Notes: generated from the letters alone by a model not told the origin. Shown: positions 33,578-64,000, numbered from the stretch's first letter. The stretch is 64,000 nt of DNA from Candidatus Magasanikiibacteriota bacterium (GCA_017991415.1 JAGOQR010000003.1:44279-108278); one strand, 5' to 3'. A program made the numbers and translations.

Positions 33578-33650
33578 CAAATACTTAAAATGAGCGCCCA
33601 TTAATTACAATTAGTGTAAGGGTTTCTGGAACTTCTGTCTAGACATAAAT
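33578..33650 (+). repeat. Direct repeat copy A flanking the GC-rich cassette
   Basis: aaaatgagcgcccattaattacaattagtgtaagggtttctggaacttctgtctagac aligns at about 80% identity with copy B at 34845-34936 (ttacaatcagtgtaaggatttctggggattctgtacagac). Confidence 0.6.
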
Positions 33651-33731
33651 TTAGGATACTTGGATCAGGTTTGAAATTTAAAATAAAAAAAACGAAACAG
33701 TAAAACAGGTGTTTGGAAAGCAATTCTTCCA

Positions 33732-33760
33732 TTGACAAAACACTATTTTTATGCTAATAT
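33732..33760 (+). promoter_or_regulatory. Near-consensus sigma70 promoter driving the GC-rich lipoprotein gene
   Basis: TTGACA (33732-33737), a 17-nt spacer, then TAATAT (33755-33760), all in AT-rich DNA. A leader of about 100 nt contains the SD AAAGGA. Confidence 0.6.
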
Positions 33761-33863
33761 AATGTGTTCTTTTTCAACACTTGATACCCTTATCGACCCC
33801 AACTTTACCGAGGCTAATGCTATCGGTGGGTCTGAGGGGTTTCAAGCCACGAAAGGAATCGAC

Positions 33864-34640
33864 ATGACCCGCATCTCGATCATTCTCGCCGCTGCCTTCG
33901 CCGTCGCCGCCTGCACCGAGACCGAGGTGGTCGTCAACGACCACTACGGCGTCTGCACGGCCGACGAGCAGTGCCCGGGCACCTACGTGTGCCAGGACGG
34001 CATCTGCATCGAGCCGGAGGAGCCGCCACAGTCGGTCGCGGACTGTGCGACCTACGAGTGGGCCGGTCGGGAGACGCCCTGGCACTGCTGGTGCGAGGGC
34101 GACAACTGCATCGGCACCGATGCCGAGCTCCCCTGGGAGTGCCCGCTCGACTTGCTGGACTCCGATCCCAACGACGGCGTCTGCGGTGTGCAGTGCCACG
34201 ACCACTTCTGGCTCGACGCCCAAGCGGTCGGTCTCGACCCCAACACCTCGCCCCCGTCCCTGACCTTCGACGTCGGTAACGGTGTGGTGACATGCACCCA
34301 GTACGTCGACATCTCGCCCTTGCGCTTCGTGCGCAGCCAGACCGAGATCTACCTGGATGCGCCCGACGGCCGTACCGTCCAGATCGACTATCGGATGACG
34401 GCCCCGGCCATCGTCGAGGTGTTCATCCGGTACAACGAGGGTGCCCAGTGGATCAACGGCGGACTTGCCTTCACCTACACCTTCCCGGGCGGCCCCACCA
34501 ACATCGGTGGCGTGCGGTACGGGTTCCGGCCGGAAGAGTCATTCCCTTCGGGGACCACCACCTACTGGAAGCTCGAGGCTCATCGGTGGATCAACAACGA
34601 GCTGTTCGACACCTGGACGGGGAGCATCACGCTCCCCTGA
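33864..34640 (+). CDS. Cysteine-rich secreted lipoprotein of unknown function, encoded in a compositionally foreign (about 65% GC) segment
   Basis: ATG at 33864 preceded by AAAGGA. Lipoprotein signal MTRISIILAAAFAVAAC. At least 12 Cys in the N-terminal half (CTADEQCPGTYVCQDGICIEPEE; WHCWCEGDNCIG). Codons are strongly GC3-biased, unlike all neighbouring genes. The opposite-strand and other-frame ORFs listed in the track here are high-GC artefacts. Confidence 0.7.
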   Translation: MTRISIILAAAFAVAACTETEVVVNDHYGVCTADEQCPGTYVCQDGICIEPEEPPQSVADCATYEWAGRETPWHCWCEGDNCIGTDAELPWECPLDLLDSDPNDGVCGVQCHDHFWLDAQAVGLDPNTSPPSLTFDVGNGVVTCTQYVDISPLRFVRSQTEIYLDAPDGRTVQIDYRMTAPAIVEVFIRYNEGAQWINGGLAFTYTFPGGPTNIGGVRYGFRPEESFPSGTTTYWKLEAHRWINNELFDTWTGSITLP

Positions 34641-34646
34641 ACACTG

Positions 34647-34744
34647 CCTCTGGCTGCGCTCTCACGAGAGAGCGCAGCCCCATCCGAGTTGTTTGCACAA
34701 CAGAATAATTAATTTGTTATGTTGTGCAAACTCGGATGCAGAGG
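34647..34744 (+). repeat. Composite inverted-repeat structure at the 3' end of the GC-rich gene
   Basis: An outer pair cctctg...cagagg encloses a GC hairpin (ggctgcgctctc-acgag-agagcgcagcc, 34652-34679) and a 19-22 bp AT-richer imperfect IR (catccgagttgtttgcacaaca ... tgttgtgcaaactcggatg, 34681-34738). Confidence 0.6.
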
Positions 34745-34757
34745 AAGTATAAATTTA

Positions 34758-34792
34758 AAAAGCCCTTCTTATTCAGAAGGGCTTTTTAGTTA
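34758..34792. terminator. Bidirectional rho-independent terminator
   Basis: aaaaagcccttc-ttattca-gaagggcttttt. Confidence 0.65.
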
Positions 34793-34844
34793 AAAAACTA
34801 AACAATAAAAATTAAACCTTACGAAACATGTCAACTAAAATCTA

Positions 34845-34936
34845 GGATTTAAAAGATGACGCACTGCGGGCCACTCGGGTTAAGTACCCGTTAGTTACAA
34901 TCAGTGTAAGGATTTCTGGGGATTCTGTACAGACTT
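34845..34936 (+). repeat. Direct repeat copy B flanking the GC-rich cassette
   Basis: Matches copy A, with an internal GC-rich insertion of about 23 bp. Lies between the cassette terminator and a hypothetical gene next to tRNA-Ser. Confidence 0.6.
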
Positions 34937-35034
34937 AGAGTCGAGGCACGTGGGTCTAGCCTGGATTTTAACAGGTCATCTAATAAAGAACGCCTAATAT
35001 TGAGAGCATGTGATAGTATCCGAATTGGAACAAT

Positions 35035-35475
35035 TTAACTGTTGACAATTGCAGAATCCGGTAATGATGGAAAATCTTTTAATTTTATTGTTACCTCTTT
35101 ATCAAGAAAAGCGCGGGTAAGGCGATGCATGCCATTAAATATTTGTCCATCCACAGTTCTCCATATGGGATTGGATAAATCTGCATGCTGGATTGTTGCT
35201 ACGTGATCGGCGTAGGCTTGATTTTGTTTTGCTGCGTCCCAATCTTTAAGAAGATCGTATGGGCCTAATAAATCCCCGTTTCTATCAGTCCAATAATAAT
35301 TCCCTTCAGATACTGCTTCAGCTAATTCATTCAATGGCACTTCTCGCGTAGGAAGCAGTTCAGCGACGCGCTCTAAAAGTTCAACATTATAAAGCTGGTC
35401 TCCAACAGTGGTTGTTTCAAAGTTATGACCATGCAATCCATCTTGATATCCAGCTGGCGGTTTTCCTTCTAGCAT
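35035..35475 (-). CDS. Hypothetical protein (147 aa) adjacent to tRNA-Ser
   Basis: The ORF-track version (35035-35586) runs through the tRNA-Ser gene. The start is placed at the internal Met (MLEGKPPAGYQDG...). No recognisable motif. Confidence 0.4.
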   Translation of the reverse strand: MLEGKPPAGYQDGLHGHNFETTTVGDQLYNVELLERVAELLPTREVPLNELAEAVSEGNYYWTDRNGDLLGPYDLLKDWDAAKQNQAYADHVATIQHADLSNPIWRTVDGQIFNGMHRLTRAFLDKEVTIKLKDFPSLPDSAIVNS

Positions 35476-35499
35476 AATTATTTGATTTTTTAAAAAATG

Positions 35500-35584
35500 C
35501 GGAGAGGGTGGGATTCGAACCCACGAGGCCTTGCAGCCTACCGCTTTTCGAGAGCGGCACTTTCGACCACTCAGACACCTCTCC
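35500..35584 (-). tRNA. tRNA-Ser (anticodon CGA), type II tRNA with a long variable arm
   Basis: Reverse complement is GGAGAGGTGTCTGAGTGGTCGAAAGTGCCGCTCTCGAAAAGCGGTAGGCTGCAAGGCCTCGTGGGTTCGAATCCCACCCTCTCCG. Anticodon loop CTCGAAA. Long variable arm. Confidence 0.85.
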
Positions 35585-35625
35585 ATTTTAAATTGCTCTT
35601 ATCCTAACACGAATTAGCTGGACCT

Positions 35626-36249
35626 TCAACGATTATCCAAACTAGCCCATAAATATAGCGAAGCGGTCGTGCGATACGGTTGCCAACGAGAAGATAGTTG
35701 TTTTAATTTTTTAGGAGATGGATCCTTACGTAAACCATACAATTTCTTAACTGCATTTCGCAAACCCAAATCACCAAAAGAAAATACATCTGGCCTACCA
35801 AGCGAAAAAATCAAAAACATTTCTGCCGTCCATCGCCCGATTCCTTTTACTTTTACAAGCATCTCAATTATTTCTTCGTCTGTTTTTTTATTTACCTGCC
35901 TAAAATCCAATGCGCCCTCCTCAAACGCAGTGGCAAGATTTTTAATATATGAAGCCTTAGAACCAGACACTCCTACCGATCGAAGCTCCTCATTACTTTT
36001 TGCCAAAACCTGAGCAGGCAAAGGAAATTTACCCTGAGGGAACAAAGCTTTGAATCGTTTTATAATTGTACTAGCTGCCTTGCCTGAGAGCTGTTGGCTT
36101 ATAATAGCGTCGGCCAAAGATTCAAAATAGTTTTTGCTCGAACGCAAAATTGTTGGCTTAGCCAACAAAAATAGTGTGGCAAGTAGCGGATCTGCTTTTT
36201 TTAAAAAAACCATAGCTGGCGACATAGATACTTTTTTCTGTACTGACAT
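35626..36249 (-). CDS. DNA-3-methyladenine glycosylase II-like (HhH-GPD superfamily, AlkA-type)
   Basis: 207 aa with an HhH-GPD motif region (VKVKGIGRWTAEMFLIFSLGRPDVFSFGDLGL). Confidence 0.7.
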   Translation of the reverse strand: MSVQKKVSMSPAMVFLKKADPLLATLFLLAKPTILRSSKNYFESLADAIISQQLSGKAASTIIKRFKALFPQGKFPLPAQVLAKSNEELRSVGVSGSKASYIKNLATAFEEGALDFRQVNKKTDEEIIEMLVKVKGIGRWTAEMFLIFSLGRPDVFSFGDLGLRNAVKKLYGLRKDPSPKKLKQLSSRWQPYRTTASLYLWASLDNR

Positions 36250-36250
36250 A

Positions 36251-37801
36251 TTACAATTCTATACACGGTTTTACTTTATTATTAAACCCTTCAAGCTGCG
36301 CAATTTGATCTACGGTAATATTTTGCAATTTTTTATCTCGCTTATTCTCTGGGTACATTACTTCATAAAAAAGCGGCATCATACTATCTACTCCGTTTTG
36401 CAAAGACATACCCTTGGCTGACTCTACGATTTTGTTCCAGGTGCTATTTGTACCATAGAGCATAAGATCTAAGCCCGTAGCTTGGAATAAGCTACCATTT
36501 TTATCTTGCAAAAACGCAAGCGCGATATCCCCGCCCATAATCTTGGTTTCTATTTGTTTACACATACCTGCTTCCTCGCTTTCTCCTATCTCCTGGAGCA
36601 ACTGCAGATACCCTGCTTTCATAGCAGTTAAGTAACTTGGCTGAGAAAAACCACCTAGACAAGTTACGCCGTAATAAAACGAAATAAGTATAAAGGTAAG
36701 GAGCATAGAGGGGACGAGCTCTCCTGACTGTAATTTTTCACTAATAACCAAAGCTGTTAAGGGCACACAGAAAGTACCGTCCGCATTTATTAGCCCTCCA
36801 TTTTTTTTCCATAATCGCTGCCTATACTTTTCTCCTTTGGGTTTTGCCCAAAACAAAAAAGTTCCAATATCATTTTTTGAAAAAGCGCCAATAATGCCTT
36901 CAAAATATTTTATCAGTAGCTGCTGATATTTGGCATTAAAAATAATTTGATTAACGATTGTATTCTGATTGAGGTGATACTTGATAAGTAAATTACTTGT
37001 AATTGTTTCCTGATCAATGTAGACAAGATTTGGTAATTTTTTGTACGGGGCAAACAACTGTTGCCAAAACCTGAAGTTAGTCTTGGTAATTTGTTCAGAA
37101 TAATTCTTGCTCTCTAACACATCAGACTGACCATAAACTACATCAATTAATCTTGTAATTTTTTCTACTGTCTCATGACGAATGAGACCGTCTAACACTT
37201 TGTGCTTTAGCATTTTTTTAATACGGGTTAAATCTTTTTGCGTATAACCCTCAAGTCCATAGACAGCCCGCTGACTATCTTTGGCTGGGAAAAAAGACAA
37301 ACGATGCAGCTCTTGAGTGTTCCCTATATCACTATGAAAAATGAGTCCACGTGGAAAAGAAGAATTGTTAAGCGAGACATTAGCGCAGGACAAAACAATA
37401 ATATTTTCTAAATTAAAATCTGCTTGGGGTGTGGCAGTAATTAAATTAGCATTTAAAAAAAATGGATGACAAATTGGCCCATGATGATCGACAGTGGAAA
37501 CAAAATAATTTTGCTCTAACTGCCTTTCGACACTGTGCGCAACCTCAACACCAAGCAGCCGCTCTACCTGCTCCACAACAACAGCAACAAATTCTGCCTG
37601 ACGATCTTTTGCAGCAGGGCTCTTCTCAATTTCTTTATACCGCAAGGCATGGTCATACAATGTTTCATTGCCTTTCTTTTCAAGAGTTTCTTGAAGGGCA
37701 GGGGCGGTACGAAGCACTTGGTTTTTAAGTTGCGCAAAATCTAACCCAAGCTGGCTTGAATCAATAAAATTTCTTTCTCGGGCTATATTCATAGAAGACA
37801 A
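36251..37801 (-). CDS. Hypothetical protein (516 aa), likely co-transcribed with the upstream ATP-grasp gene
   Basis: Long ORF without recognisable motifs (no P-loop, no Mur-ligase GxxGKT). Ends 2 bp before alkA-like and starts 16 bp after the ATP-grasp gene. Confidence 0.4.
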   Translation of the reverse strand: MSSMNIARERNFIDSSQLGLDFAQLKNQVLRTAPALQETLEKKGNETLYDHALRYKEIEKSPAAKDRQAEFVAVVVEQVERLLGVEVAHSVERQLEQNYFVSTVDHHGPICHPFFLNANLITATPQADFNLENIIVLSCANVSLNNSSFPRGLIFHSDIGNTQELHRLSFFPAKDSQRAVYGLEGYTQKDLTRIKKMLKHKVLDGLIRHETVEKITRLIDVVYGQSDVLESKNYSEQITKTNFRFWQQLFAPYKKLPNLVYIDQETITSNLLIKYHLNQNTIVNQIIFNAKYQQLLIKYFEGIIGAFSKNDIGTFLFWAKPKGEKYRQRLWKKNGGLINADGTFCVPLTALVISEKLQSGELVPSMLLTFILISFYYGVTCLGGFSQPSYLTAMKAGYLQLLQEIGESEEAGMCKQIETKIMGGDIALAFLQDKNGSLFQATGLDLMLYGTNSTWNKIVESAKGMSLQNGVDSMMPLFYEVMYPENKRDKKLQNITVDQIAQLEGFNNKVKPCIEL

Positions 37802-37816
37802 AACTTGGTCGACTTA

Positions 37817-39007
37817 TTAAAACGCATCAATATACTGCTCTACATAATCCCACAAAGGTTGGGCCACATTATTTGTCGCCCCTTCAACAGGATCATAGTG
37901 CAAATTAATAAACGGTAAACCATTACACTCTATAATGCCCCATTTTTGCTCATCTGGATTACGAGAAATATCGTTAATAATAAAATCAAAACCAATTACA
38001 GGGTCGGCAACTACTTCCGCTGCTTTTTCTAAAATTTTTATAGTTTCTGGATGGGTAATACTCGTTACTTCCGCTGCACAGCCCCCATAGGAAACGCCGA
38101 TTTTTTCTAGCAGATCAATAGTCTGATTGTTCGGCAGAACGCTCTCCAAGTTTAATCCAAGTCTAGCTAGAAAATTTTTATGCTCTTCTGTGACCACTAC
38201 ATCTTTAACACCTGTTGGCTTGTTGGAATTTTTTATTTCAATTAAACGAGCAACGGAACTATTACCATCACCTGTAATTCGTGGCGGATCCCCGCGTAAT
38301 ACACCCGCTACTTTTCCGTTTATGACGGTACCGCGATAGACACTACCCACCAAATGTTCTTCTAAAATTACCCAGTAGCAGAGCTGTTTGGCTGACTCAA
38401 ATGCTTTTTTTAAATCTTCTTCAGTATATATGTGCGTGGTAGTATGTCGCCCTCGTGAACCAAGACGCGGCTTTATAATGACTGGCTTTTCTAATTCTTT
38501 AAACTTGTTGAGCAGTGGTGAAAAACGAGAAAATACTCCGCCTCGAGCTACAGGCAAACCCTCATCTTGTAAAGTTTTTTTAAAAAGCGCCTTATCATCC
38601 AACCACCATTCGGAGTTTTTTGGGGTACGAAGCGGCCTTGGCAACCCGTTAAAATAAATCTTTTTACCATGTACAGTCGCCCCATACAAGTCGACTACTT
38701 TTCCAAATGCATAGAAATTATGCATAGGTATACCACGACGCAGAGCCTCTTGCCAGAGCACCTTGCCGCGCTGATTTACTGTTTTGCTTGGATCATTATT
38801 AACCTTAAGCACACCCACGGCGCTATACAACCACACAAAAAATTTAAGTAGCGGATTGGTAATAGCCGCTGCCAATCGAGATAAAAAACTTTTTGACAAC
38901 CAAACATGCATTGGCGAACTAAAAACCGAGCTCGTCTGACTAAACCACGAAAGAGCGTGTGATACTTGATTATTGCCACAGGCTAAACAGCGTTGTTTTT
39001 CAGACAT
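37817..39007 (-). CDS. ATP-grasp ligase resembling the N-terminal ATP-grasp half of cyanophycin synthetase (CphA), without a Mur-ligase domain
   Basis: 396 aa. Segments VIIKPRLGSRGRHTT, VINGKVAGVLRGDPPRITGDGNSSVARLIEIKN and GVSYGGCAAEVTSITHPETIKILEKAAEVVADPVIGFDFIINDISRNPDEQKWGIIECNGLPF are collinear with CphA ATP-grasp regions (VVKP..G..G.GV, VVNGKLVAAA.R.P..V.GDG..TI.ELI and NLSTGG.A.DVTD..HP.N...A..AA.AIGLDIAGID...DIS.P). Confidence 0.55.
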   Translation of the reverse strand: MSEKQRCLACGNNQVSHALSWFSQTSSVFSSPMHVWLSKSFLSRLAAAITNPLLKFFVWLYSAVGVLKVNNDPSKTVNQRGKVLWQEALRRGIPMHNFYAFGKVVDLYGATVHGKKIYFNGLPRPLRTPKNSEWWLDDKALFKKTLQDEGLPVARGGVFSRFSPLLNKFKELEKPVIIKPRLGSRGRHTTTHIYTEEDLKKAFESAKQLCYWVILEEHLVGSVYRGTVINGKVAGVLRGDPPRITGDGNSSVARLIEIKNSNKPTGVKDVVVTEEHKNFLARLGLNLESVLPNNQTIDLLEKIGVSYGGCAAEVTSITHPETIKILEKAAEVVADPVIGFDFIINDISRNPDEQKWGIIECNGLPFINLHYDPVEGATNNVAQPLWDYVEQYIDAF

Positions 39008-39040
39008 ACTAGAGAGTTAATAACCTTCATATAATATACG

Positions 39041-39077
39041 AAAATGAGCCTGTTGCAAACAGGCTCATTTCTTTTTT
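39041..39077. terminator. Hairpin terminator between VIT1 and the ATP-grasp gene
   Basis: aatgagcctgtt-gcaa-acaggctcatt followed by tcttttttg. Confidence 0.5.
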
Positions 39078-39090
39078 GCAGGTTAGCCTT

Positions 39091-39879
39091 TTAGGCCAAG
39101 CCACCAAGCAGTATCCCAACACCATAAGCAGAAGCTGCTGCAAAACCACCAAGCAACAACATCTCGAGACCAGCTTGATACCAAGGCTGACGAGTAAAGT
39201 AAATTTTAAGAGTACCAAGGATAAATAACGTAATACCCGTTAGAACGCAGGCCATCACAAAAGTATGAGCAGCAAAAAAAGGAACAAAGCGAGCTGCTAC
39301 ATAAATTAAAACGGGGATGGATCCAAAAAAAATGAAAGAACCAAATGTAACAGCTGCATTTTTTATTGGAGACTCCTTACTTTCCACCATACCCAACTCT
39401 TCTACCATCATAATATCTACCCACGATTTTTCATATTTCGACAAAGCTTGAACCGCGATTTTTGCATCTTCTTCGGCAATACCTTTTTCCATATACAGCT
39501 CCACCATTTCTTGCTTTTCACCTTCTGGGTAATTACGAACTTCCCATGTCTCTCGCACTCGTTCAGCAGCCATATAATCATTTTCTGCTTTGGTACTTAA
39601 ATAATCACCAAAGGCCATCGATATGCCATCGGCAATCAAATTGGCTACACCCAAAATTAAAACGACCGTAGAAGTTAAGCTTGCTCCAGCTACTCCAGCC
39701 ACCACGGCAAATGTAGTTATAATTCCATCCAAGCCGCCATAAACAAAGCTTTTAATATATTGCCCTCCTCCAGAAAAATGATTCTCAGGCGCTCGGCCAC
39801 CTTGATGAGCTTTTTTACTCGCCTCAGCATCATTATTACGAAAAGCATCTCGTGCCTGATCCAAATTTCGAGTAATCAT
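39091..39879 (-). CDS. VIT1/CCC1 family iron/manganese transporter
   Basis: 262 aa with a VIT1 signature region (GGLDGIITTFAVVAGVAGASL...LGVANLIADGISMAFGDYLS) and a C-terminal TM bundle. Confidence 0.75.
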   Translation of the reverse strand: MITRNLDQARDAFRNNDAEASKKAHQGGRAPENHFSGGGQYIKSFVYGGLDGIITTFAVVAGVAGASLTSTVVLILGVANLIADGISMAFGDYLSTKAENDYMAAERVRETWEVRNYPEGEKQEMVELYMEKGIAEEDAKIAVQALSKYEKSWVDIMMVEELGMVESKESPIKNAAVTFGSFIFFGSIPVLIYVAARFVPFFAAHTFVMACVLTGITLFILGTLKIYFTRQPWYQAGLEMLLLGGFAAASAYGVGILLGGLA

Positions 39880-39904
39880 ACATCATTTTTTATAAAATAA
39901 TTTA

Positions 39905-40513: not shown

Positions 40514-40541
40514 AATCCTAGATTGATATTAATAATAATGA

Positions 40542-53259: not shown

Positions 53260-53276
53260 ACTAGTAGATATAATAA

Positions 53277-54160: not shown

Positions 54161-54186
54161 TCGAGTGGATAACTATTTTAGTTTTA

Positions 54187-57100
54187 CTAGTTGCCTGCTT
54201 TTATTTCTAGAGCCAAAGCACTGGACTCCCAAACATCTGCACCAGCCGGATCGGTCATATCATTCCAGGTTACGTTCGTTGAACTACTACCTGTTCGTGT
54301 TTGAGTTTCCATATCTCCGTATCCATACGAAGTTGCTTGATCAAATATTTCTGTCCAACCAGTACCTGGAGTTGCAAGACTATTAGTGTTATTGTTGTCG
54401 GTCGTACCCTTGGTAGCTACCACCACACTATTAGTGGCTGGTGCAGCTGACAAGTTAATAGTTGCGGCGGCCATTCCAAGGCTTGATCCACTTGCAGTAG
54501 CTCCAACTGGAGATGCAGTGTCATGCCCCGTAAATGCTATCACTTGAATATTAACGCGAGTTGGGTCGCTCCCCGAAGTGCCAGTGCCAGCAAAGGTGAT
54601 GGCCATTGGCGCAGCTGTACCAACTTGAGCTGTCCAAATTTCCTGCACATACTCATAACCAAATGGATGGTTTGGTGAGGTAAAAGATAGTTGTCTTGTC
54701 CAGGTTAATCCACCACCTGATACGGCGATAGTACCTTGTGTTTGATTGTTAACTGATAATGTACTGACAACCAACAATGAATTACTTGGCGGGGTAAAGG
54801 TTGCGCCAGTTACGGAAATTGGAGAGTTGGCTGCCTCAGTCAGTAATTGACTTTGAATATTTGTCTGAGTAAGGGTACCACTACCAGGATTTGCTACGGA
54901 AAATGAAACTGACGAATCATTGGAAGTGTTAGTAGCTGCGTCTTGGCATTTTACATAATATGTATACGAACTTCCATTAGTTAGACCAGAAAGCGTTGTG
55001 CTGTGTGCTGTTGCGCCCGTTGTACCAAACGGAGTCATTGCAGCAAATGAAGCACCGGAAACTGTAGCATACCTACAAATAGCATTTTCATTTGTTGTAA
55101 CACTTAAAGTTGTATTAGTAGTTCCAGAAGACAAAACCGCATTTTGAGCAGGCGCAGCGACAATCACCGTTGGTGGAGTAGTGTCTGCAGGAGGTACTGC
55201 TAAAGTAGTGGTGGAAACAGGAGTAGATGTATCAGAAACATTGCTAGCAGCATCTACGGCTTTCACTGTATAGCTATACAATGTAGAGGCAGTTAAGCCA
55301 GTGTCATTAAAAGAATTTGAAGCTGGGGTTGCAATTGGCGTAGTGTTACCATCACGGAAAACTTGATAACCAGTTACCCCGACATTGTCTGTGGAAGCAG
55401 CCCAACTTAGATTAATTTGTGTATCTGATGCTGGGATTGCAATAAGACTGGTTGGAACAGATGGAGCGATGGTATCAGGAGCAGCAGACTGCACAGCAAT
55501 TAGCCACAGATGCGCTCCCTGTACTGGCGAAGCTGTCCAGGTAACATTATAGGTACCAGCAGTAGTTACTTCTTTTGAAGCAATTACTGTTTGGATTGCA
55601 CAGGTAGTATTAACAAGCTGTGATTCAACTACTGTAAAGCCGTTATTAGGAACTGCAGTCATGCCTTCTTGAGCACCATCTCCAGCCCACAACGCAATGA
55701 GTGTAGCTGGGCCATTAACTGTTACATTAGCACTTGTATTTGGAGCGCTTCCGACTGTTTTAACCCACTGCGCATCAGCAATTACACCGCCATTTTTAAT
55801 TTCTACAACACCCATCGTAACTTCGTCTGAAGATGGTAATTGAGTGCTAAAAATATGATTTGCTCCGCCATTTGCAGATGTTACTTGGTACATCGCTTCA
55901 CCAGAAGTAGGCCAGTACGGAGAATAATCATGCACTGTACCAATCATATTAAACACGTTCCCTTTATTGTCTGTAGGAACAGCCGTAAAATCACCAATCA
56001 CACCACGTGCTACCCAAGCAAGTAATGTACTATTTGAAGTTTGTGTAGTAATTGGGGCGGTTGTTAGTGTGCCATTACTATTACATGGGTACCAAGCAAT
56101 TGCATGAGCGCCGAGTGAGGCCGCACCAGTTGATGTGTTAGCTTCGGAAGTTGTAGCAGAAGCACCGAGCGAAAATCCAGAGCGATTTCCAGCTGCATCA
56201 TAAGCTCTAACAGTAAAGTTATAACCAGTGGCTGCGGAAAGACCAAAATTACTAAAAGTAGTATTTGCACTGGTACCTACCTGAACACCATCGCGGAAAA
56301 TTTCATACCCAGTTACCGCAACATTATCAGTAGAAGCAGTCCAATTAAGATCTACTTGAGAGCTAGACATCACCGCAGCTGCCAAATTTGTTGGAACTGA
56401 TGGTGCTGTAGTATCTACAGCGGCGGCAGTAGTAAATACTACATTACTGCCTACTCGCTCATTTCCAGCTGCATCTTTGGAACGAACGCGAAAATTGTAC
56501 GTAGTATTTGGATTAAGACCAGAGATAACATGCGAGTGAGAAGTGAGGAGCGTATTGTCGATTGCGGTTGTAGAACCATAACTTGTAGTCAACCCATAAT
56601 TTGCCTGAGACGTAGCAGGTTCATCTGTTGTCCAAGTTATTGTTGCGCTTGTACCTGTAATATTTGTAGCAGCGACTACAGAAATAGTTGGAGCGGTCGT
56701 ATCAAGAATAATAGTTGCGCTTGAAACTGGCGACCAGTTCCCGGCGGCATCTTTAAATTGTGCATACACAGTTTTGACCCCTGCTCCAGTAGCGAGCGTC
56801 CATGAAGCAGTAGTATTATATGCAACTGCAGTGTTAAAACTAGTACCGTTATTTGAAAAACGCATTTGGGTAATGGAAGTTACTGCGTCGGTAGCAGATA
56901 AGGTAAGAGTAGCTGCCGTACTATTAGTATAGGCGGCACCACCATTGATTACTATCGTTCCGGCTGCAGGCACTTCGTTATCTACCGTAACATTTATAAT
57001 ACTCGTCGCACTATTACGAGCTGCATCCCGACCACGCGCAGAAATTGTATGTAAACCATTTGAAACTAAGGTAGAGTTCCAACTCATTGTATATGGCGAA

Positions 57101-57345
57101 ACAGTGTCCTCAACACCTAAATTAATACTTTCATCCAGAATAAACTGTACACCTACCACCCCAACCGCATCAGAAGCGGTGGCAGTAAGAGTAAGCGCAC
57201 TACCGGCCACAAATGTGTCGGCAACTGGCACCGTGGCTCTAACCACAGGTGGAGTATTATCGGCGGCAAGTGCTGCCGAACCAAAACCTAACACGGCGAC
57301 GACACCTACCAAAATCGCCGAGAGACGTACGTATGCATGCTGCAT
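54187..57345 (-). CDS. Very large secreted Thr/Ala/Ser-rich surface protein with repeated fibronectin type III-like and Ig-like domains
   Basis: 1052 aa with a signal peptide (VGVVAVLGFGSAALAADN) and at least three FN3-like units (e.g. TAPTISVVAATNITGTSATITWTTDEPATSQANYGLTTSYG...YNFRVRSKDAAGN; APSVPTNLAAAVMSSSQVDLNWTAS...YNFTVRAYDAAGN). Confidence 0.65.
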   Translation of the reverse strand: MQHAYVRLSAILVGVVAVLGFGSAALAADNTPPVVRATVPVADTFVAGSALTLTATASDAVGVVGVQFILDESINLGVEDTVSPYTMSWNSTLVSNGLHTISARGRDAARNSATSIINVTVDNEVPAAGTIVINGGAAYTNSTAATLTLSATDAVTSITQMRFSNNGTSFNTAVAYNTTASWTLATGAGVKTVYAQFKDAAGNWSPVSSATIILDTTAPTISVVAATNITGTSATITWTTDEPATSQANYGLTTSYGSTTAIDNTLLTSHSHVISGLNPNTTYNFRVRSKDAAGNERVGSNVVFTTAAAVDTTAPSVPTNLAAAVMSSSQVDLNWTASTDNVAVTGYEIFRDGVQVGTSANTTFSNFGLSAATGYNFTVRAYDAAGNRSGFSLGASATTSEANTSTGAASLGAHAIAWYPCNSNGTLTTAPITTQTSNSTLLAWVARGVIGDFTAVPTDNKGNVFNMIGTVHDYSPYWPTSGEAMYQVTSANGGANHIFSTQLPSSDEVTMGVVEIKNGGVIADAQWVKTVGSAPNTSANVTVNGPATLIALWAGDGAQEGMTAVPNNGFTVVESQLVNTTCAIQTVIASKEVTTAGTYNVTWTASPVQGAHLWLIAVQSAAPDTIAPSVPTSLIAIPASDTQINLSWAASTDNVGVTGYQVFRDGNTTPIATPASNSFNDTGLTASTLYSYTVKAVDAASNVSDTSTPVSTTTLAVPPADTTPPTVIVAAPAQNAVLSSGTTNTTLSVTTNENAICRYATVSGASFAAMTPFGTTGATAHSTTLSGLTNGSSYTYYVKCQDAATNTSNDSSVSFSVANPGSGTLTQTNIQSQLLTEAANSPISVTGATFTPPSNSLLVVSTLSVNNQTQGTIAVSGGGLTWTRQLSFTSPNHPFGYEYVQEIWTAQVGTAAPMAITFAGTGTSGSDPTRVNIQVIAFTGHDTASPVGATASGSSLGMAAATINLSAAPATNSVVVATKGTTDNNNTNSLATPGTGWTEIFDQATSYGYGDMETQTRTGSSSTNVTWNDMTDPAGADVWESSALALEIKAGN

Positions 57346-57410
57346 AGATTATATTAAATGAATAAATTTAAATTAACGACTGATGATGAGTATAACAAAA
57401 TTGAATATTA

Positions 57411-57451
57411 AAAACAAATACTGTGCAAGGGGTGCTCGCACAGTATTTGTT
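57411..57451. terminator. Strong hairpin terminator (perfect 15-bp stem) downstream of the methyltransferase gene
   Basis: aaacaaatactgtgc-aaggggtgctc-gcacagtatttgttt. Confidence 0.6.
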
Positions 57452-57471
57452 TAAACAACTCAGAATTTTTG

Positions 57472-58266: not shown

Positions 58267-58450
58267 AAAAAAATATTTTGATTATATAAAAAAACCAAGT
58301 ACAGCACTTAAAATATTCTAAGTTACATTCAATGCGAACCGATCGGATTACGCACCCATTGTACCATAATCAACATAGTGCTCTCTAACACTTCTACCCA
58401 AATTTAAATTGATACACTCAGGCCATTGAATCAAGCGGGATTACTAGTAA

Positions 58451-59314
58451 CTAGTTTAAAGCGCAACACTGAGGATTCTTTCCATTTACCGTACCTGAGT
58501 CAACAATTATACCTAGATCTATATCATTTTTAAAACAGGCTGTACCTACACTTGTAACGGCTGCTGCGTAACCTTTCTGCGCAACACAATCTTCCATAGT
58601 TACAGTCTTTGAAACATTTGCCTTTTGTCCACCTGTGCCAAAATATTCTCCCCAGCAATCCATGCCGCTAAAATCTGCTGTAGAAAAATTACCCTCTTTC
58701 CAGTTGCTAAATACTTTTAGCAAGTCTGCCGCATTATAAAATTTGCAACTGCCTTCACGGCCTACCAAAGATCGAGCTGCCTTGTTTGACTCCTGCTGTT
58801 GTTGCGCAACTTCTTCATTTGTCATGCCGCTATCCAACATCTGCTGAACTGCTTCTTTAGTAAAAGAAACACTGCCATCTGTAACTTTCAGATAAAATAC
58901 ACACTCATTTCCTTGCCTCCCTTTAATTTCATAAACTGCAGCGGATTTAGAAAACATGCCGAATATTTCACCTTCATCTTTACTAATTATTTTTGCTAAC
59001 GTGCAATTTTTAACAGCGCTGTTAAAACAATTAAAATTTTGATAATTCAGCGAAGTACCACAGTTAACTACGGGTAGCTGGGTAAGTTGTTTTGACGTGG
59101 TATTAGATGAAGTGCTAGACGAAATTACAGGTGTAAACGCCGCTGACTCATCCGACACCACAGAATTTCTGTCGGTTTTTACAAATTTTTGAAAAGCGGT
59201 ATAAGCTCCGCCGCCAATGAGCACGCCTACGATTATAGAAATAGCGATAATTTTCCATGTAGCTAAAACTTGTTTTATGTTTACCTGATTGTTCTGTCCA
59301 AACTGGTTATTCAT
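58451..59314 (-). CDS. Hypothetical membrane-anchored secreted protein
   Basis: 287 aa with an N-terminal TM (IIAISIIVGVLIGGGAY) and a Cys-containing extracellular domain. No recognisable motif. Confidence 0.4.
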   Translation of the reverse strand: MNNQFGQNNQVNIKQVLATWKIIAISIIVGVLIGGGAYTAFQKFVKTDRNSVVSDESAAFTPVISSSTSSNTTSKQLTQLPVVNCGTSLNYQNFNCFNSAVKNCTLAKIISKDEGEIFGMFSKSAAVYEIKGRQGNECVFYLKVTDGSVSFTKEAVQQMLDSGMTNEEVAQQQQESNKAARSLVGREGSCKFYNAADLLKVFSNWKEGNFSTADFSGMDCWGEYFGTGGQKANVSKTVTMEDCVAQKGYAAAVTSVGTACFKNDIDLGIIVDSGTVNGKNPQCCALN

Positions 59315-59391
59315 ATTTTTTAATTTAGAGAATATATAAAATTTTTAGATATGTAATTATTGATAGTAAACTGGAAGAAAAATATTAAACT

Positions 59392-60189
59392 CTACAAATC
59401 AACCTCAACTGCTACCGGACAATGGTCGGAGCCAAGAACATCTTTATGGATTGTCGCTTTGGTAACTTTTGATACTAATTTTTTACTGACAAAGAAGTAA
59501 TCAATTCTCCAGCCAACATTACGGGCACGAGCGTCACCAAAATGACTCCACCATGTATAGTGCCCATTGCCTTTGGTAAAAATACGGAAAGTGTCCGCAA
59601 AACCACGCTTAATTATATTATCTATCCCTTCTCGTTCCTCGTACGTAAAACCGTGTCCGCCGATATTTTCTTTGGGCCGCGCCAAATCATCTTCGGTATG
59701 AGCAACGTTTAAGTCGCCACAAAACACAACTGGTTTCTTTTTTTCCAACTGGCACATATATTCCAAAAATGCCGGATCCCACTGCTTGTGGCGTAATGGA
59801 ATGCGAGAGAGATCTTCTTTGGCATTAGGTGTATATACGGTAACAACGTAGAATTTTTTGAATTCAAGAACCGTGACTCGACCCTCGGCATTAGCATCAC
59901 CATACTTATCACTCACTAGTTTATATTTCTTGGCAATATCTTCTGGAATACCCAACACTACCGAAATCGGTTTAATTTTGGTAAATATAGCCGTCCCGCT
60001 GTACCCTGGTCGCTCTGCCGAATTCCAATACTCTTCATAGTCCGGTAAATCAACTTCGCTCTGATGCTGCTTGGCTTTTGTTTCTTGCAAACACAAAATA
60101 TCGGGTTTGTACTTTTCAATAAAAGGCAGGAACATGCCCTTTTTGTGGACTGCCCGAATTCCGTTGATGTTCCAAGACATTATACGCAT
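59392..60189 (-). CDS. xth: Exodeoxyribonuclease III (AP endonuclease, Xth family)
   Basis: Start reassigned to [13 protein letters not shown]. The ORF-track N-terminal extension runs through tRNA-Ser. Xth motifs include LQETK, GDLNVAH and the C-terminal SDHCPV. Confidence 0.8.
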
Positions 60190-60205
60190 GGTGCTTTTAA
60201 AAAAT

Positions 60206-60291
<86 letters not shown>

Positions 60292-60342
60292 AAAAAGTAT
60301 GATTAGATTAACATAAAGAAATTGAGAAATCAATAGTCATAG

Positions 60343-62934
60343 TTACCTTCTTTTAAAGAATTTTTCCTTTGCTTGTTTTACCCACCCTGCAATTATAACA
60401 CCTTTAAATCTGATTAAAAAAGCAAGGACAAGGGCACTTATACCACCCAATGTAACTAAACTATATTTTTTAACAACGTTTTCTTTAGTATTGCTAATTT
60501 TTTCGCCTAAAACCTTGGCGTCTGGCGCCACATCTATTACCTGAACATCGTCATTGGACCTTGGCCAAAGCTGCCATTCACTAGCTGTTTTTTCTAAAAT
60601 TCCTACAACCCAAACCCTCTCGCCTTCTTTTAAGTTTTGCTTATTAATTTGAGCGTTCTTTTTAAAAGTGACTTTTATTTCCGCTTCACCATTATCAACA
60701 AACATAAAGCTGGATTTAAGCTCTGTAATCTCGCCTTCAACCTGAACTAAGGCGCCAGCATTACTATCTTCTAAGCCCGACAAACTGACTTCAGTTTTTG
60801 GTACCACATTGCCAAGCGATAAAATATCAACACTCTGACTATTTTTAATATTTACTCTTTTTATTCCACTGACCTCGGAAACAGTTCCAGAAACTTCTAC
60901 CAGGTCACCAACACCTAGCGGCGGAAAGTCTTTTTTACTCTGATAAATTTGCACTCCTGCATTATCATTATTTATATAAAAAAACTGGCTACCAAATATA
61001 TTTGGCACAACCGAGACTATACCTTTTATTTTCACTGGCTGGCCTTTGACAGCACTTCGCACATCCCCGATATTTATAACAAGCGCTCCAACAGATTTGG
61101 TTGCGGTTTTTTGATTAGTGTTACTATTTTTTTCTTCTGCCAACAAACTTTCTGATTCTAATGTTAAAATCTTACCTGGATTTGGTTTTACCCATCGCCA
61201 CTCTCCCCGAACTAATGCAAAACTTTTACCAGATAATGGTTTTTCGTATTTTACCAAATCAACAAGGGTTTTATCTTTATTAAATAACTCAACTTTTCCA
61301 ACCGTGTTTACCAGACTAATCTTGGTGGCCGCTTTATAAAAAACCAACGTACCGTTCGGAGCAATAATCGTATTATCTACAAAAGTATATTTTTTATCAC
61401 CAACTTTTAAAAACCAGCCGGCCAGATTAACAACTGTAGCAGAATTATTTTTCAACTCAATAAACTCTGCGCTATCATCGCCTTCTGGATTTGGTAATAT
61501 TTCCGAAATAATTATATCGGCGTTCTGAGCCAAACCACTCCCTACACTAATTTCTATTTTTTTATTTTCTCCATACCCACTTGTGCTTGTTACAAACAAC
61601 GAGACGGTATGCGTGCCGGAGGTGGCAAAACTAGTCTTTATTTCTGGCCCCACTACCTGCTGACCATTTTCTAAGGTCCAAAAAAAGTGCAGCTGCCCAC
61701 CACGCGGATCGGCTACATCTTCGGCATTAAGGGTTATTGTTTCGTTTATATCAGCCGAGGAAGGCGCTATAATATTCCATACAAAAATAGCTGGTGTTTT
61801 TTTAATGGTTTTGACTGTGCTTGAAACTACTTTTTGAGAAAAGCTACTATCGCTGCTTACCGTTTCTTCTACAACTATTACATTCGCTGCGCCTGGAGAA
61901 ATTTTATTTGTCACAAGCCAATCTGCCTCATTATCTGTATCCAACCCATCTACAATTCGAGCGAGTGACTGGCCTTCGTCTGGAGACAGCTCATCGTTAT
62001 AATCTATCCTATCTATTACCACCCCACGAACATCTTTTAAAATAACACTATCTCCAGAATTATTTAAAAAACTTTTACTTTGCAGATCTATCTGCAACCA
62101 CCCATACGGCCCCACAGCCCCAGTTATTTTTTTACAGGTAGAGGTGGTGTTGCGAGAATCACATACCATAGCCCCACCTATATCAACAGAAAGCCCCGAA
62201 GAATTAAACAGTTCTACCCATTCATTTCCATCTTCGGGATCTGACACTATCTCGTTTAGAGAGAGCGCAGTTAAATCAGCTGGAGTAACCGCCACTAACC
62301 CAGATTGCGAAGCACTAGATCCATACGGATTTATAAAAGAAGATGTACTTGTTACAACCTCTTCTTGCGCAAGAACAGTTGTGGTAATACTTGTTGTACT
62401 AACAAAAGAAGTAAAATTATTTACAAATCCAACAGTATTACTTGCCAGATGTTCAGCCCAATTAACCGATGTATAATCGGATAAAAAAGAATCTTTTCTT
62501 TGCAAAGAAAAATTAGCAGCAATGGGGTATGTAAACTGTTCTACAAAATTTCCTTGCGCATCCTTTAACCCTATTACTTCTCCGCTTTCATTTAGGCTGC
62601 TCCAAGAAGAATCAAAAACCGAACCAGCAAAAAATGGATAATCTATAATAAACTGGGTGGCATCCTGTACAATTACTCCGTATTCACCAGCATCAAGAAT
62701 AGAATTTGTGGTACTCACCGACAAGCTATGATTTGTATTGTTTTCCCAAAATTTCCAACTTAACAAGTCTACTGGCTCGCTTCCCTTATTCCAAATTTCT
62801 ATCCACTCATGCCCACTGGGTTCGTATGCACCTATTTCATTAATAACAATATCGGAGTTAGCAGAAAAAGCATACTGGCCAACAAAAAAACTACTTGCCA
62901 ATAAAAACAAAATAAAAACTATCCTCCGCTTCAT
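60343..62934 (-). CDS. Large secreted protein with multiple lamin-tail domains (LTD) and a C-terminal membrane anchor
   Basis: 863 aa with a signal peptide. Three LTD-like units (IVINEIGAYEPSGHEWIEIWNKGSEPVDLLSWKF; SLNEIVSDPEDGNEWVELFNSSGLSVDIGG; IIISEILPNPEGDDSAEFIELKNNSATVVNLAGWFL). C-terminal TM (LVTLGGISALVLAFLI) followed by a basic tail. Confidence 0.65.
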   Translation of the reverse strand: MKRRIVFILFLLASSFFVGQYAFSANSDIVINEIGAYEPSGHEWIEIWNKGSEPVDLLSWKFWENNTNHSLSVSTTNSILDAGEYGVIVQDATQFIIDYPFFAGSVFDSSWSSLNESGEVIGLKDAQGNFVEQFTYPIAANFSLQRKDSFLSDYTSVNWAEHLASNTVGFVNNFTSFVSTTSITTTVLAQEEVVTSTSSFINPYGSSASQSGLVAVTPADLTALSLNEIVSDPEDGNEWVELFNSSGLSVDIGGAMVCDSRNTTSTCKKITGAVGPYGWLQIDLQSKSFLNNSGDSVILKDVRGVVIDRIDYNDELSPDEGQSLARIVDGLDTDNEADWLVTNKISPGAANVIVVEETVSSDSSFSQKVVSSTVKTIKKTPAIFVWNIIAPSSADINETITLNAEDVADPRGGQLHFFWTLENGQQVVGPEIKTSFATSGTHTVSLFVTSTSGYGENKKIEISVGSGLAQNADIIISEILPNPEGDDSAEFIELKNNSATVVNLAGWFLKVGDKKYTFVDNTIIAPNGTLVFYKAATKISLVNTVGKVELFNKDKTLVDLVKYEKPLSGKSFALVRGEWRWVKPNPGKILTLESESLLAEEKNSNTNQKTATKSVGALVINIGDVRSAVKGQPVKIKGIVSVVPNIFGSQFFYINNDNAGVQIYQSKKDFPPLGVGDLVEVSGTVSEVSGIKRVNIKNSQSVDILSLGNVVPKTEVSLSGLEDSNAGALVQVEGEITELKSSFMFVDNGEAEIKVTFKKNAQINKQNLKEGERVWVVGILEKTASEWQLWPRSNDDVQVIDVAPDAKVLGEKISNTKENVVKKYSLVTLGGISALVLAFLIRFKGVIIAGWVKQAKEKFFKRR

Positions 62935-63168
62935 AAATTAAAGTTTAACGTAACTTAATTTATCAAATATAGAGTATGGGATGTCAAAAATATTTAACAT
63001 AAATTTAAAATTTGTATCAAAAATTAAATAACACCTAGCAACTTACCTGTCCGCTTTGAAAAAACCAAAGTAAACTTGAGGAATTATATCACTTTTCAAA
63101 CACGAATTGTCAAGGATCTTGGTGTAACTAAAAACACTCCACTTTCATGGAATGTTTTTAAAAATTTT

Positions 63169-63230
63169 CTGAGATCTCCGTAATTCTATATACAAGTATT
63201 TATATAGAGAATTACGGCGGAGATCTCAGG
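63169..63230. repeat. 62-bp imperfect inverted repeat abutting the second GC-rich segment
   Basis: ctgagatctccgtaattctatata ... tatatagagaattacggcggagatctcagg. The right arm carries two 2-nt insertions. Composition switches to GC-rich immediately after the IR. Confidence 0.6.
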
Positions 63231-63293
63231 CATCCTCCACCGCACTGTTGGGGTTGGAGGTTGATGCGTTGTTGGGCGCGGGCCGACGCGGCG

Positions 63294-63692
63294 CTACTTG
63301 ACGGTGAAGGTGACCCTCGACCAGTCGATCTCGACCGGTCGTGCGACGTAGCTGAAGTCGCACTGGCCGACGTGCCCGTTCTTGTCGATGAACTCGCTGA
63401 GCGTCACCGGCTTGAGCTGGTAGGCCAACGCGGTGAACTTGGGAGCCGCCTTGGCGCAGTTGTCGTAGGTCAGACCGGAGGCGCTGGTGTCTCGAGCGCG
63501 GACGATGATATCGACCATCGCCGACATGATGCGCTCCTCGCAACTGGCGTTCTTGCACTGCTTGGGCGCCGACTTGTCGGCCTTGGACGACGCCTGCGTC
63601 TTGGCACTGACGACAGTCTCCGCTCCGGCGACCGAAGCGATGGTGCCGAACAGGAGGGTGAAGAACATGCAGAGCTTGAGAGTGGTATTCAC
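63294..63692 (-). CDS. Small secreted protein of unknown function, encoded in a compositionally foreign (about 60-65% GC) segment
   Basis: 132 aa with a GTG start at 63690-63692 preceded by the SD AGGAGA. Signal peptide LKLCMFFTLLFGTIASVAGAE. Several Cys (CKNASCEE; DNCAKAAP; VGQCDF). Strong GC3 bias. The overlapping + strand ORFs in the track are high-GC artefacts. Confidence 0.65.
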   Translation of the reverse strand: MNTTLKLCMFFTLLFGTIASVAGAETVVSAKTQASSKADKSAPKQCKNASCEERIMSAMVDIIVRARDTSASGLTYDNCAKAAPKFTALAYQLKPVTLSEFIDKNGHVGQCDFSYVARPVEIDWSRVTFTVK

Positions 63693-63830
63693 GACAGTCT
63701 CCTACGTGGGGGTTTTGGAAATTGAACCTTTGTACAAGCCAGCAGGCTTTACCAAGGTAAAAGAAAGCCTAGTTTTGGATCTCTTTTCCCCTGGCAAAGC
63801 CTGGTTTGTTATTTAAAAGAGCAACAGACA

Positions 63831-63859
63831 ATTATACACCAAAACAAGAATTTTGTCAA
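63831..63859 (-). promoter_or_regulatory. Consensus sigma70 promoter driving the second GC-rich gene
   Basis: Read on the minus strand: TTGACA, a 17-nt spacer, then TATAAT, in AT-rich DNA. A structured leader of about 130 nt precedes the SD. Confidence 0.6.
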
Positions 63860-64000
63860 TCCCCCTACGAGAGTGATAATATATTTTGGCTAAGATAAAA
63901 GATTTTTGTAGTACCCCCCCCTATAGACACGGCTTATTCCAAAGGATAGGTTAAACAAAAAATACCTTCACTCAATTACAGAGACAGGGCTGAACAACAT

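Follow-up and report, generated by a model that had tools for sequence, protein, structure and literature searches.

The stretch analysed here, hereafter the window, comprises 64 kb of a 183.6-kb contig from a metagenome-assembled genome of Candidatus Magasanikbacteria, a lineage of the CPR (candidate phyla radiation, also called Patescibacteria), and it contains two single genes, 29 kb apart, that stand out by their G+C content (GC). Against a window mean of 0.39, GC-rich blocks occupy ~33.8–34.7 kb and 63.2–63.75 kb, and each holds one open reading frame (ORF), here called ORF1 and ORF2. The two units follow a common order of promoter, structured leader, Shine–Dalgarno (SD) sequence, GC-rich ORF, one or more GC-rich hairpins in the 3′ untranslated region (UTR), a long AT-rich hairpin and a separate terminator, with leader bounds that rest on inferred transcription starts (~33766 and ~63825):

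33732–33760, plus strand: promoter of unit 1, TTGACA-17-TAATAT with a TG-extended −10, matching 10 of 12 consensus positions
33766–33863, plus strand: 5′ leader RNA of unit 1 (~98 nucleotides, nt), a three-tier hairpin whose outer helix pairs the 5′ GUUCUUUU with the SD region AAAGGAA (33852–33858)
33864–34640, plus strand: ORF1, 258 amino acids, KBC69_04130
34652–34679, plus strand: GC-rich hairpin of 12 bp directly past the stop codon, in a UTR stretch of GC 0.68
34681–34738, plus strand: long AT-rich 3′-UTR hairpin of unit 1, with base CATCCGAG/CTCGGATG, conserved loop AATAATTAATTTGTTA and covarying upper stem
34757–34787, plus strand: intrinsic terminator of unit 1, with A and T runs on either side, kept in the related contigs L006 and L012
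63860–63892, minus strand: conserved element upstream of the ORF2 promoter, TAGCCAAAATAT.ATTATCACTCT...GGGGGA, found in the window and in the related contigs L147 (~5128–5160) and L151 (~2180–2212)
63859–63831, minus strand: promoter of unit 2, TTGACA-17-TATAAT
63825–63693, minus strand: 5′ leader of unit 2 (~133 nt), starting GUUGCUCUUUUAAA, with a central hairpin (UUGCCAGGGGAAAAGA / UCUUUU.CC..GG)
63692–63294, minus strand: ORF2, 132 amino acids, KBC69_04250, with a GTG start
63293–63230, minus strand: GC-rich 3′ UTR of unit 2 (GC 0.69), with a hairpin at 63260–63234
63229–63169, minus strand: long AT-rich 3′-UTR hairpin of unit 2, two helices, with base CUGAGAUCUCC/GGAGAUCUCAG and covarying inner stem
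63159–63130, minus strand: intrinsic terminator of unit 2, AAAAACAUUCC...GGAGUGUUUUU, kept in L147 and L151

An earlier note on this DNA had described the two loci as foreign segments with a shared cassette grammar, in which compositional contrast, a strong native promoter, a leader and a large 3′ inverted repeat come together. The combination itself is present at both loci: ORF1 and ORF2 are the only two outliers in GC at third codon positions (GC3) among 52 ORFs of at least 90 amino acids, the other 50 lying at 0.21–0.51, and the locus 2 promoter is the sole 12/12 consensus match in the 64 kb. Since we found no sequence similarity between locus 1 and locus 2, the grammar is one of shared architecture, not of shared sequence. 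It is real and non-random and recurs elsewhere, and the reading of it as a foreign cassette or gene-capture system is not supported by what follows.

ORF1 has an overall GC of 0.66, with 0.59, 0.49 and 0.90 at first, second and third codon positions (GC1, GC2 and GC3), and ORF2 has 0.62, with 0.50, 0.46 and 0.895; native genes of the window have a GC3 of ~0.29–0.34, and GC1 and GC2 are also raised in the two ORFs. Their codon choice is the mirror image of the native one (AAG 100% versus 17%, TTC 100% versus 12%, ATC 95% versus 16%), with A-ending codons reduced to 2–3% and third positions occupied by C (0.54–0.58) and G (0.32–0.35), the local GC skew staying within ~0.2 in either direction. 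In both units the GC-richness runs ~40–65 nt past the stop codon into the 3′ UTR. The junctions that bound ORF1 recur in three independent Logan assemblies, so that the composition boundaries are not an assembly artefact or chimera. Nor is amino-acid composition alone the source of the GC3 signal, since a 1052-amino-acid surface protein encoded in the window (54187–57345, minus strand; FN3, Big_7 and Big_13 domains) has a GC of 0.45 and yet a native GC3 of 0.28.

Relatives of ORF2 allow the age of this composition to be judged. A phmmer search of 1.84 billion representatives returned three distant relatives, none from a GC-rich genome, and relatives in two diverged genomes, represented by L147 and L151, have 40–46% identity. 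The first of these (P0014, on the 394-kb contig L147; 46% identity) lies directly upstream of the orthologue of the window's lamin-tail-domain (LTD) gene, and the second (P0015, L151) shares its dksA-like upstream neighbour with the copy in L147. Common to the window, L147 and L151 are the upstream element, the −35 hexamer and 17-nt spacing of the promoter (the −10 differs by one base, TATAGT and TATACT), the GTTGCTCTTT start, the central leader hairpin, the GC-rich ORF and 3′ UTR, the long hairpin and the terminator. GC3 of the ORF2 orthologue in L147 is 0.88, and the LTD protein has only 58% amino-acid identity between the window and L147, with synonymous saturation suggested by an NG86 synonymous divergence (dS) that could not be computed. 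Because a GC3 of ~0.9 was kept at the locus while its LTD neighbour fell to that identity, ORF2 is not recent foreign DNA; by this comparison its composition is ancient and maintained. The extreme GC3 is thus a property maintained over genus-level divergence, not the trace of a recent transfer. The tRNA after the LTD gene, tRNA-Ser(UGA) at 60206–60291 in the window, also has its counterpart in L147 (8635–8721). In L151 a 180-nt hairpin-rich block of GC 0.5–0.6 (~1380–1560) stands in the AT-rich intergenic region upstream of the ORF2-type unit, without an Rfam match at the gathering score. We regard the conserved element upstream of the ORF2 promoter as a candidate operator or UP element, a potential regulator binding site.

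ORF1 belongs to a family of 12 proteins among 5.8 billion, with three loci among 185,579 species genomes. In every family contig that was read (L004, L006, L009–L012, L138, L141 and L142, of which L010 is a named Magasanikbacteria genome) a GC-rich ORF (GC3 0.69–0.93) lies in flanks of 0.38–0.43 GC, accompanied in the same order by promoter, leader, post-stop GC-rich hairpins equivalent to that of unit 1, AT-rich hairpin and terminator. Promoter-like hexamers precede each of these units and are identical in most of them, with TTGACA and the 17-nt spacing exact in L004, L006, L010 and L012. Homology between the window and these relatives ends at the borders of the unit, 33597 to ~34800, and the flanking genes differ. 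The earlier note would have been refuted by two solitary loci with ordinary unconserved terminators as repeats, or by relatives of native composition; on these points it stands, as further instances exist, the repeats are conserved and the copies in related genomes are equally GC-rich.

The ORF1-type unit varies between close relatives. In the window and L006 the leader and N-terminus are near-identical and the C-terminus is divergent. L010 and L011 have flanks that are 92–99% identical, yet their ORF1-type units, from leader to 3′ UTR, are only 63–80% identical, with a dS of 1.03 and a nonsynonymous divergence (dN) of 0.147 compared with 0.07–0.37 and at most 0.033 in native genes; under codon bias as strong as in these GC-rich genes dS is underestimated. 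The divergent stretch stops near the promoter and the terminator, so that the unit has undergone an allele replacement bounded by these conserved elements. For a swap with conserved promoter and terminator sequence at the ends of the exchanged segment, ordinary homologous recombination suffices as an explanation. Unit A, a neighbouring GC-rich unit in both contigs, diverges like the native flanks (dS 0.18). The strain variability raised in the earlier note is partly right, the ORF1-type unit having been replaced by a divergent allele between L010 and L011 and the ORF1 unit of the window being bracketed by an 85-nt direct repeat (described below); the ORF2 unit is syntenic and apparently stable. 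L010 and L011 both have three GC-rich ORFs in a row. Unit A encodes a 252-amino-acid lipoprotein (GC3 0.78) and has a leader of the R1 family described below and a AAATTTCTAA...GGAAATTT hairpin; the second raised gene encodes a 349-amino-acid, very Cys-rich, membrane-anchored protein (GC ~0.52) behind a short leader. They lie at L010 3647–4690 and 4713–5762, and at the equivalent positions of L011, just upstream of the ORF1-type unit.

The products point to the cell surface. In ORF1 a lipoprotein-type signal with the lipobox VAAC is joined by a Cys-rich module in the N-terminal part and by a β-sandwich of FN3/Ig-like type in the C-terminal part, and the protein is predicted to be a surface lipoprotein with an FN3-like domain; its family has 13 invariant cysteines and, in keeping with surface proteins, a high dN/dS. 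ORF2 has a Sec-type signal peptide, four cysteines and an N-terminal MNT in common with its L147 orthologue; an AlphaFold2 model made without an alignment was poor (pLDDT 56.5) and unfit for a fold search. Pfam, NCBIfam and PHROGs gave no hit above cut-off for ORF1, ORF2 and two other cargo ORFs, a sub-threshold EB-module match being all that appeared, and an exact-sequence look-up of ORF1 and ORF2 with the start codons used here returned no record. Judged by these searches, neither ORF seems to belong to a described family.

Both leaders fold far better than shuffled sequences (z −4.2 at locus 1, −4.1 to −4.4 at locus 2; 0 of 200 shuffles as good). Seven ORF1-type leaders share one three-tier hairpin in RNAalifold, with the 5′ UUCUUU paired to the SD region, and a covariance model built from them, R1, scores the locus 1 leader at 100 bits. 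Present in most of the ORF1-family units read, R1 also matches before two unrelated GC-rich lipoprotein ORFs, that of unit A (L010, L011) and a 125-amino-acid ORF in L104, so that this leader family stands ahead of three unrelated GC-rich lipoprotein ORFs, the ORF1 type included. Over 11 sequences, in an alignment fitted to the R1 model itself, 93.9% of cells are paired, compared with 39–59% when the partners are slid, and 10 pairs show double changes versus 5.6 ± 1.5 in shuffles; the SD helix, in which UUCUUU faces GGAGAA or AAAGGAA, reaches 93.8% pairing over the 11, with double changes in three of its six pairs. No Rfam family matches the ORF1-type leader, which we propose as a candidate new family of cis-regulatory leaders that would protect the 5′ end and gate translation. 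SD-sequestering and 5′-stabilising elements include RNA thermometers (ROSE, FourU), the ompA leader and the STAB-SD of Bacillus thuringiensis cry3A. As in SD-sequestering 5′ UTRs, a pyrimidine-rich UUCUUU pairs the SD in a conserved helix and the 5′ end is buried in a stem, and as in the long-lived cry mRNAs a 5′ structure is combined with 3′ stem-loops; unlike them, the present leader is a ~100-nt three-tier hairpin without an Rfam family, specific to GC-rich lipoprotein genes of CPR-like contigs. In the locus 2-type leader the central hairpin is kept in L147 and L151, with weak covariation in three sequences, and its SD, GGAG 8 nt ahead of the GTG start, is not clearly sequestered.

Other leaders were noticed alongside. 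L104 (5600–6203) has two GC-rich ORFs in tandem, with neither terminator nor promoter between them and an R1-type hairpin as the inter-ORF element, and an R1-type structure can therefore occur inside an operon. Another leader hairpin, CCCAGCYTTCTTTTGG...AGAAGGCTGGGAA, recurs ahead of further GC-rich ORFs (L050, L056, L073, L076, L094, L095, L096, L109 and L123), several of them apparently cytoplasmic. Rfam offers no match to this hairpin, and the locus 2 leader holds a similar segment, AGGCUUUCUUUU.

The earlier note likened the bulged inverted repeats at the 3′ boundaries to recombination sites recognised as folded single strands, while observing that they lack attC core motifs. The latter observation holds (stem bases CATCCGAG/CTCGGATG and CTGAGATCTCC/GGAGATCTCAG, no RYYYAAC/GTTRRRY), and the likeness does not. 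With a GC of ~0.35, the long hairpins comprise 26 consensus pairs in the ORF1 type, eight supported by compensatory double changes (RNAalifold; window, L006 and L012, with base and loop conserved), and 28 pairs in the ORF2 type, seven so supported (window, L147 and L151, with the base invariant). On the sense strand, G·U cells outnumber A·C cells by ~11 to 3. The long hairpins are not directly trailed by a U tract and are not called as terminators; the separate terminators downstream have the GC stem and the U tract, and that of unit 1 could act in both directions given the A and T runs on its flanks. Compensatory changes, sense-strand G·U pairs and a location inside the transcription unit, before a separate terminator, together favour the interpretation of the long inverted repeats as 3′-UTR RNA elements rather than single-stranded-DNA recombination sites.

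The note's description of the promoters as native was borne out: they are near-consensus σ70-type promoters, common in low-GC CPR-like contigs and found also before rplM. Five nucleotides past the −10 lies GTTCTTTT at locus 1 and GTTGCTCTTTT at locus 2, and the pattern TTGACA-N17-TANNNT-N5-GTTCTTTTWMAW gave 106 metagenome matches, most of which look like true promoters in low-GC, CPR-like contigs; ordinary genes, rplM among them, follow many of the matches. As 24 of 69 non-redundant matches drive ORFs of GC3 at least 0.65, about one third of the sampled metagenome promoters of this type lead to GC-rich ORFs with long structured leaders, and the phenomenon may be widespread. The leaders of those 24 are longer, with a median of 142 versus 76 nt (p = 0.049), and much more strongly structured (−0.36 versus −0.12 kcal/mol per nt); the ORFs belong to many families, not all of them secreted, and their 3′ UTRs again hold several hairpins. 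A scan of viral contigs with the promoter motif yielded 19 chance-like matches, none followed by a GC-rich block. The grammar is thus more widespread than the earlier note could see, and the codon inversion is the surprising part of it.

The motif itself, in the form GTTCTTTT(A/T)(A/C)A(A/T), recurs in over 100 low-GC CPR-like contigs (L032–L137; window 33766–33773), where it stands exactly 5 nt past the −10 of promoters of the form TTGACA-17-TAnnnT. It is complementary to SD sequences of the GGAGAA type and precedes ordinary and GC-rich genes alike, among them an rplM-like gene (e.g., L051, L105 and L114). Considered as a cassette-specific signal, GTTCTTTT was rejected for that reason; it looks like a lineage-wide motif of the promoter or initially transcribed region.

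Taken together, we consider it probable that ORF1 and ORF2 lie in resident, long-conserved, self-contained single-gene units in which Magasanikbacteria-like CPR bacteria encode secreted or surface proteins, and not in imported cassettes. We posit that a strong σ70-type promoter of the lineage's standard form would yield a transcript with the 5′ end GUUCUUUU or GUUGCUCUUUU. In an ORF1-type unit this 5′ end would pair with the SD region and close the three-tier hairpin, so that the 5′ end is protected and initiation gated until the SD helix is opened, presumably by a factor, temperature or the ribosome. A coding region almost wholly of G/C-ending codons would then lead into a 3′ UTR with GC-rich hairpins and a long AU-rich hairpin of ~26–28 pairs, which would act at the RNA level, for example by blocking exonucleases or by recruiting an RNase or binding protein specific for double strands, before a canonical terminator closes the unit. 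Candidate causes for the upkeep of GC3 are codon selection for conditional translation, recombination-linked GC-biased conversion where surface-protein loci evolve fast, and mRNA stability. General translational selection is unlikely, since highly expressed native genes are not GC3-rich (rplM, GC3 0.39); the GC extension into the 3′ UTR and the raised GC1 and GC2 fit a regional process as well as selection. Comparing substitution classes of unit A between L010 and L011 was uninformative on what maintains the GC.

Several observations weigh against this interpretation. The GC-richness of these genes does not follow from it. Shuffling of synonymous codons revealed no mRNA structure beyond composition (z −0.5 to −1.8, like a native control). 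Between L010 and L011, unit A has a dS of 0.18, within the range of its native neighbours (0.07–0.37) and not below it, so that strong purifying selection on synonymous sites is not evident at that timescale. The starts and ends of the transcripts, like their expression, are inferred throughout. The covariation of the 3′ hairpins and of the ORF2 leader comes from only three sequences each, and the pairing counts of the ORF1-type leader derive from an alignment fitted to the model in question. Finally, the genes around ORF1 units differ from genome to genome, and two near-identical genomes have had one such unit swapped; some mobility of these units is real.

A different account concerns the cause of the GC-richness and would be compatible with a resident-unit architecture, namely that frequent allele exchange or gene conversion with GC-biased heteroduplex repair, or selection tied to recombination, keeps the exchanged segment of a variable surface-protein locus GC-rich. 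The precedent is Borrelia, whose vls cassettes have 49% G+C in a genome of 28.6%, with inverted repeats at the junction, and for which strong selective pressure has been invoked (PMC11499132). Like vlsE, a surface lipoprotein gene far above the G+C of its AT-rich genome, ORF1 encodes a predicted surface lipoprotein, here with an FN3-like domain; allele replacement and fast protein evolution are found here too, and inverted repeats likewise adjoin the vls expression site. Between L010 and L011 it is only the ORF1-type unit that is so divergent, with ends near promoter and terminator, the C-terminus departs between the window and L006 behind a near-identical leader and N-terminus, and the GC-richness reaches ~40–65 nt into the non-coding 3′ UTR, as a regional process predicts. 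We nevertheless hold this account to be unlikely, since neither the 64-kb window, compared both as DNA and as protein, nor the 12-kb homologue loci yielded silent cassettes or second copies, the strong GC skew of vls is missing, and unit A diverges at the rate of its native flanks and, like the syntenic ORF2 unit, looks stable. The contrast is also larger here (~0.9 versus 0.3 at third positions), and the repeats stand at the 3′ end and behave as RNA hairpins. It counts further against this account that no process is known which, through conversion alone, would keep GC3 at 0.9 in the face of an AT-biased background. Recent import of host-derived or other foreign genes behind native promoters, in keeping with the foreign segments and islets of host-derived genes of the earlier note, would give an extreme contrast that includes GC1 and GC2 and a post-stop GC-rich hairpin resembling the terminator of a high-GC organism; CPR bacteria are reported on GC-rich hosts (preprint 10.64898/2026.06.21.733656), and unit 1 sits between direct repeats with a tRNA-Ser gene 860 nt downstream. 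This we find decidedly unlikely. No homologue in a GC-rich context emerged from the 5.8 billion proteins, 1.84 billion representatives (including an ORF1 profile search for donors) or 185,579 species genomes, and tblastn of ORF1 and ORF2 against phages and plasmids gave no match. Every relative read has low-GC flanks and its own σ70-type promoter, most with the same leader family, which argues for common ancestry inside CPR genomes; relatives of 40–50% identity still have a GC3 of 0.88–0.93, which is incompatible with a single old transfer followed by amelioration, and it is implausible that separate transfers each hit upon the same promoter and leader.

The same preprint reports that Patescibacteria take up host RNA and have codon usage complementary to that of GC-rich hosts (10.64898/2026.06.21.733656), and it is conceivable, if very unlikely, that the inverted codon usage is itself regulatory, with a small set of secreted- or surface-protein genes of these CPR epibionts written in the codon dialect of a GC-rich host and provided with gating leaders so that they are translated efficiently only with host RNA or tRNAs or a contact signal. 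The GC3 of ~0.9, the 2–3% of A-ending codons, the SD-sequestering leader and the secreted or surface products are compatible with this; were it true, host sensing would be encoded in codon usage and ORF1- and ORF2-type genes would be deliberate exceptions to the complementary-codon rule. As highly improbable we regard mobile cassettes moved by a site-specific recombinase that reads the bulged repeats as folded single strands. Like attC sites of integron cassettes, the repeats are bulged and imperfect, with conserved bases and variable upper stems, 3′ of single ORFs, and the differing neighbourhoods of ORF1 units, the exchange between close genomes and the three GC-rich ORFs in a row in L010 and L011 would suit such a system. 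Unlike integron cassettes, the units come with a promoter and a terminator of their own, the repeat tolerates sense-strand G·U and lies inside the transcript before the real terminator, and neither attI, attC cores nor an array was found in the window; no recombinase, integrase or transposase was found at 30–64 kb, where Pfam scans gave housekeeping families only. The ORF2 unit is syntenic across deep divergence, nothing turned up in viral contigs, phages or plasmids, and the L010/L011 exchange ends where ordinary homologous recombination would end it. An assembly chimera or contamination, in which GC-rich reads were joined into a low-GC contig, comes to mind with any metagenome-assembled genome and is effectively excluded by the recurrence of the junctions in independent assemblies, by the same architecture in many unrelated samples and on a 394-kb contig, and by a promoter, leader and 3′ elements that span the composition boundary and are conserved with the ORFs.

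Resident units of this kind resemble two further systems in part. Morons, a concept of Hendrix and colleagues, are autonomous promoter–ORF–terminator insertions of atypical composition in phages. Here as there, one compositionally odd ORF with its own promoter and terminator stands between unrelated genes; unlike morons, the present units have no PHROG, phage or viral-contig matches, lie among housekeeping genes, and are conserved and syntenic, not recent additions. The lgr genes of Protochlamydia amoebophila are likewise a small family of markedly GC-rich genes in the AT-rich genome of a symbiont, without whole-protein homologues elsewhere and thought to have a role in host interaction (PMC2216083), but they are 5.6-kb leucine-rich-repeat genes from recent duplication within one genome, whereas the genes here are short, single-copy and of several unrelated families, with a UTR architecture common across genomes. 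Our literature search turned up no account of such GC-rich genes, or of leader motifs, for Patescibacteria.

Genes of outlying composition are as a matter of routine taken for recent horizontal gene transfer; here a GC3 of ~0.9 in a genome of ~0.3 is a conserved resident property. Tools that detect such transfer or clean bins would err on these genes, which some force must keep away from mutational equilibrium. Their products are secreted or surface proteins, and the CPR bacteria that make them are uncultivated and probably host-dependent, which makes these proteins candidates for host interaction. The units also offer new testable RNA elements, namely an SD-sequestering leader family absent from Rfam, two conserved long 3′-UTR hairpins and the generic promoter-proximal GTTCTTTT.

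A direct repeat, D1, brackets unit 1:

33597–33681, plus strand: D1′, the degenerate upstream copy, 85 nt, 71% identical to 34887–34971
34862–34971, plus strand: D1, the better-preserved downstream copy, 84% identical to L006 693–803

D1′ aligns with the same L006 segment, which is the copy upstream of the L006 promoter. The repeat has the core TTACAATYAGTGTAAGG and the downstream copy folds with z −2.2; neither D1 nor D1′ has an Rfam match, and among the 151 fetched loci the repeat was not found beyond the window and L006. Possible identities are a small structured RNA and what is left of a tandem duplication. An att integration site was considered and rejected, the partial copy lying on the wrong side for insertion at a gene 3′ end and L006 having the upstream copy only. 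Unit 1 lies between the two D1 copies and has a tRNA gene 860 nt downstream; no integrase was found.

Two bins that contain ORF1 relatives, L011 (CAZUFD010000002.1) and L012 (CAZETA010000006.1), are labelled ‘uncultured Gammaproteobacteria’. Both loci are low-GC and L011 is 90–95% identical over 12 kb to the Magasanikbacteria contig L010; the labels look wrong.

Across the window and 21 related loci, Rfam at the gathering score found tRNAs only, and at E-values up to 5 the two loci gave weak, chance-level matches, mostly to terminator-like hairpins. The two tRNA-Ser genes named here are both overlapped by spurious ORFs in the ORF lists. The one downstream of unit 1, tRNA-Ser(CGA) at 35499–35584, reads UCG, which is the commonest Ser codon of the GC-rich ORFs (45%, versus 9% in native genes).

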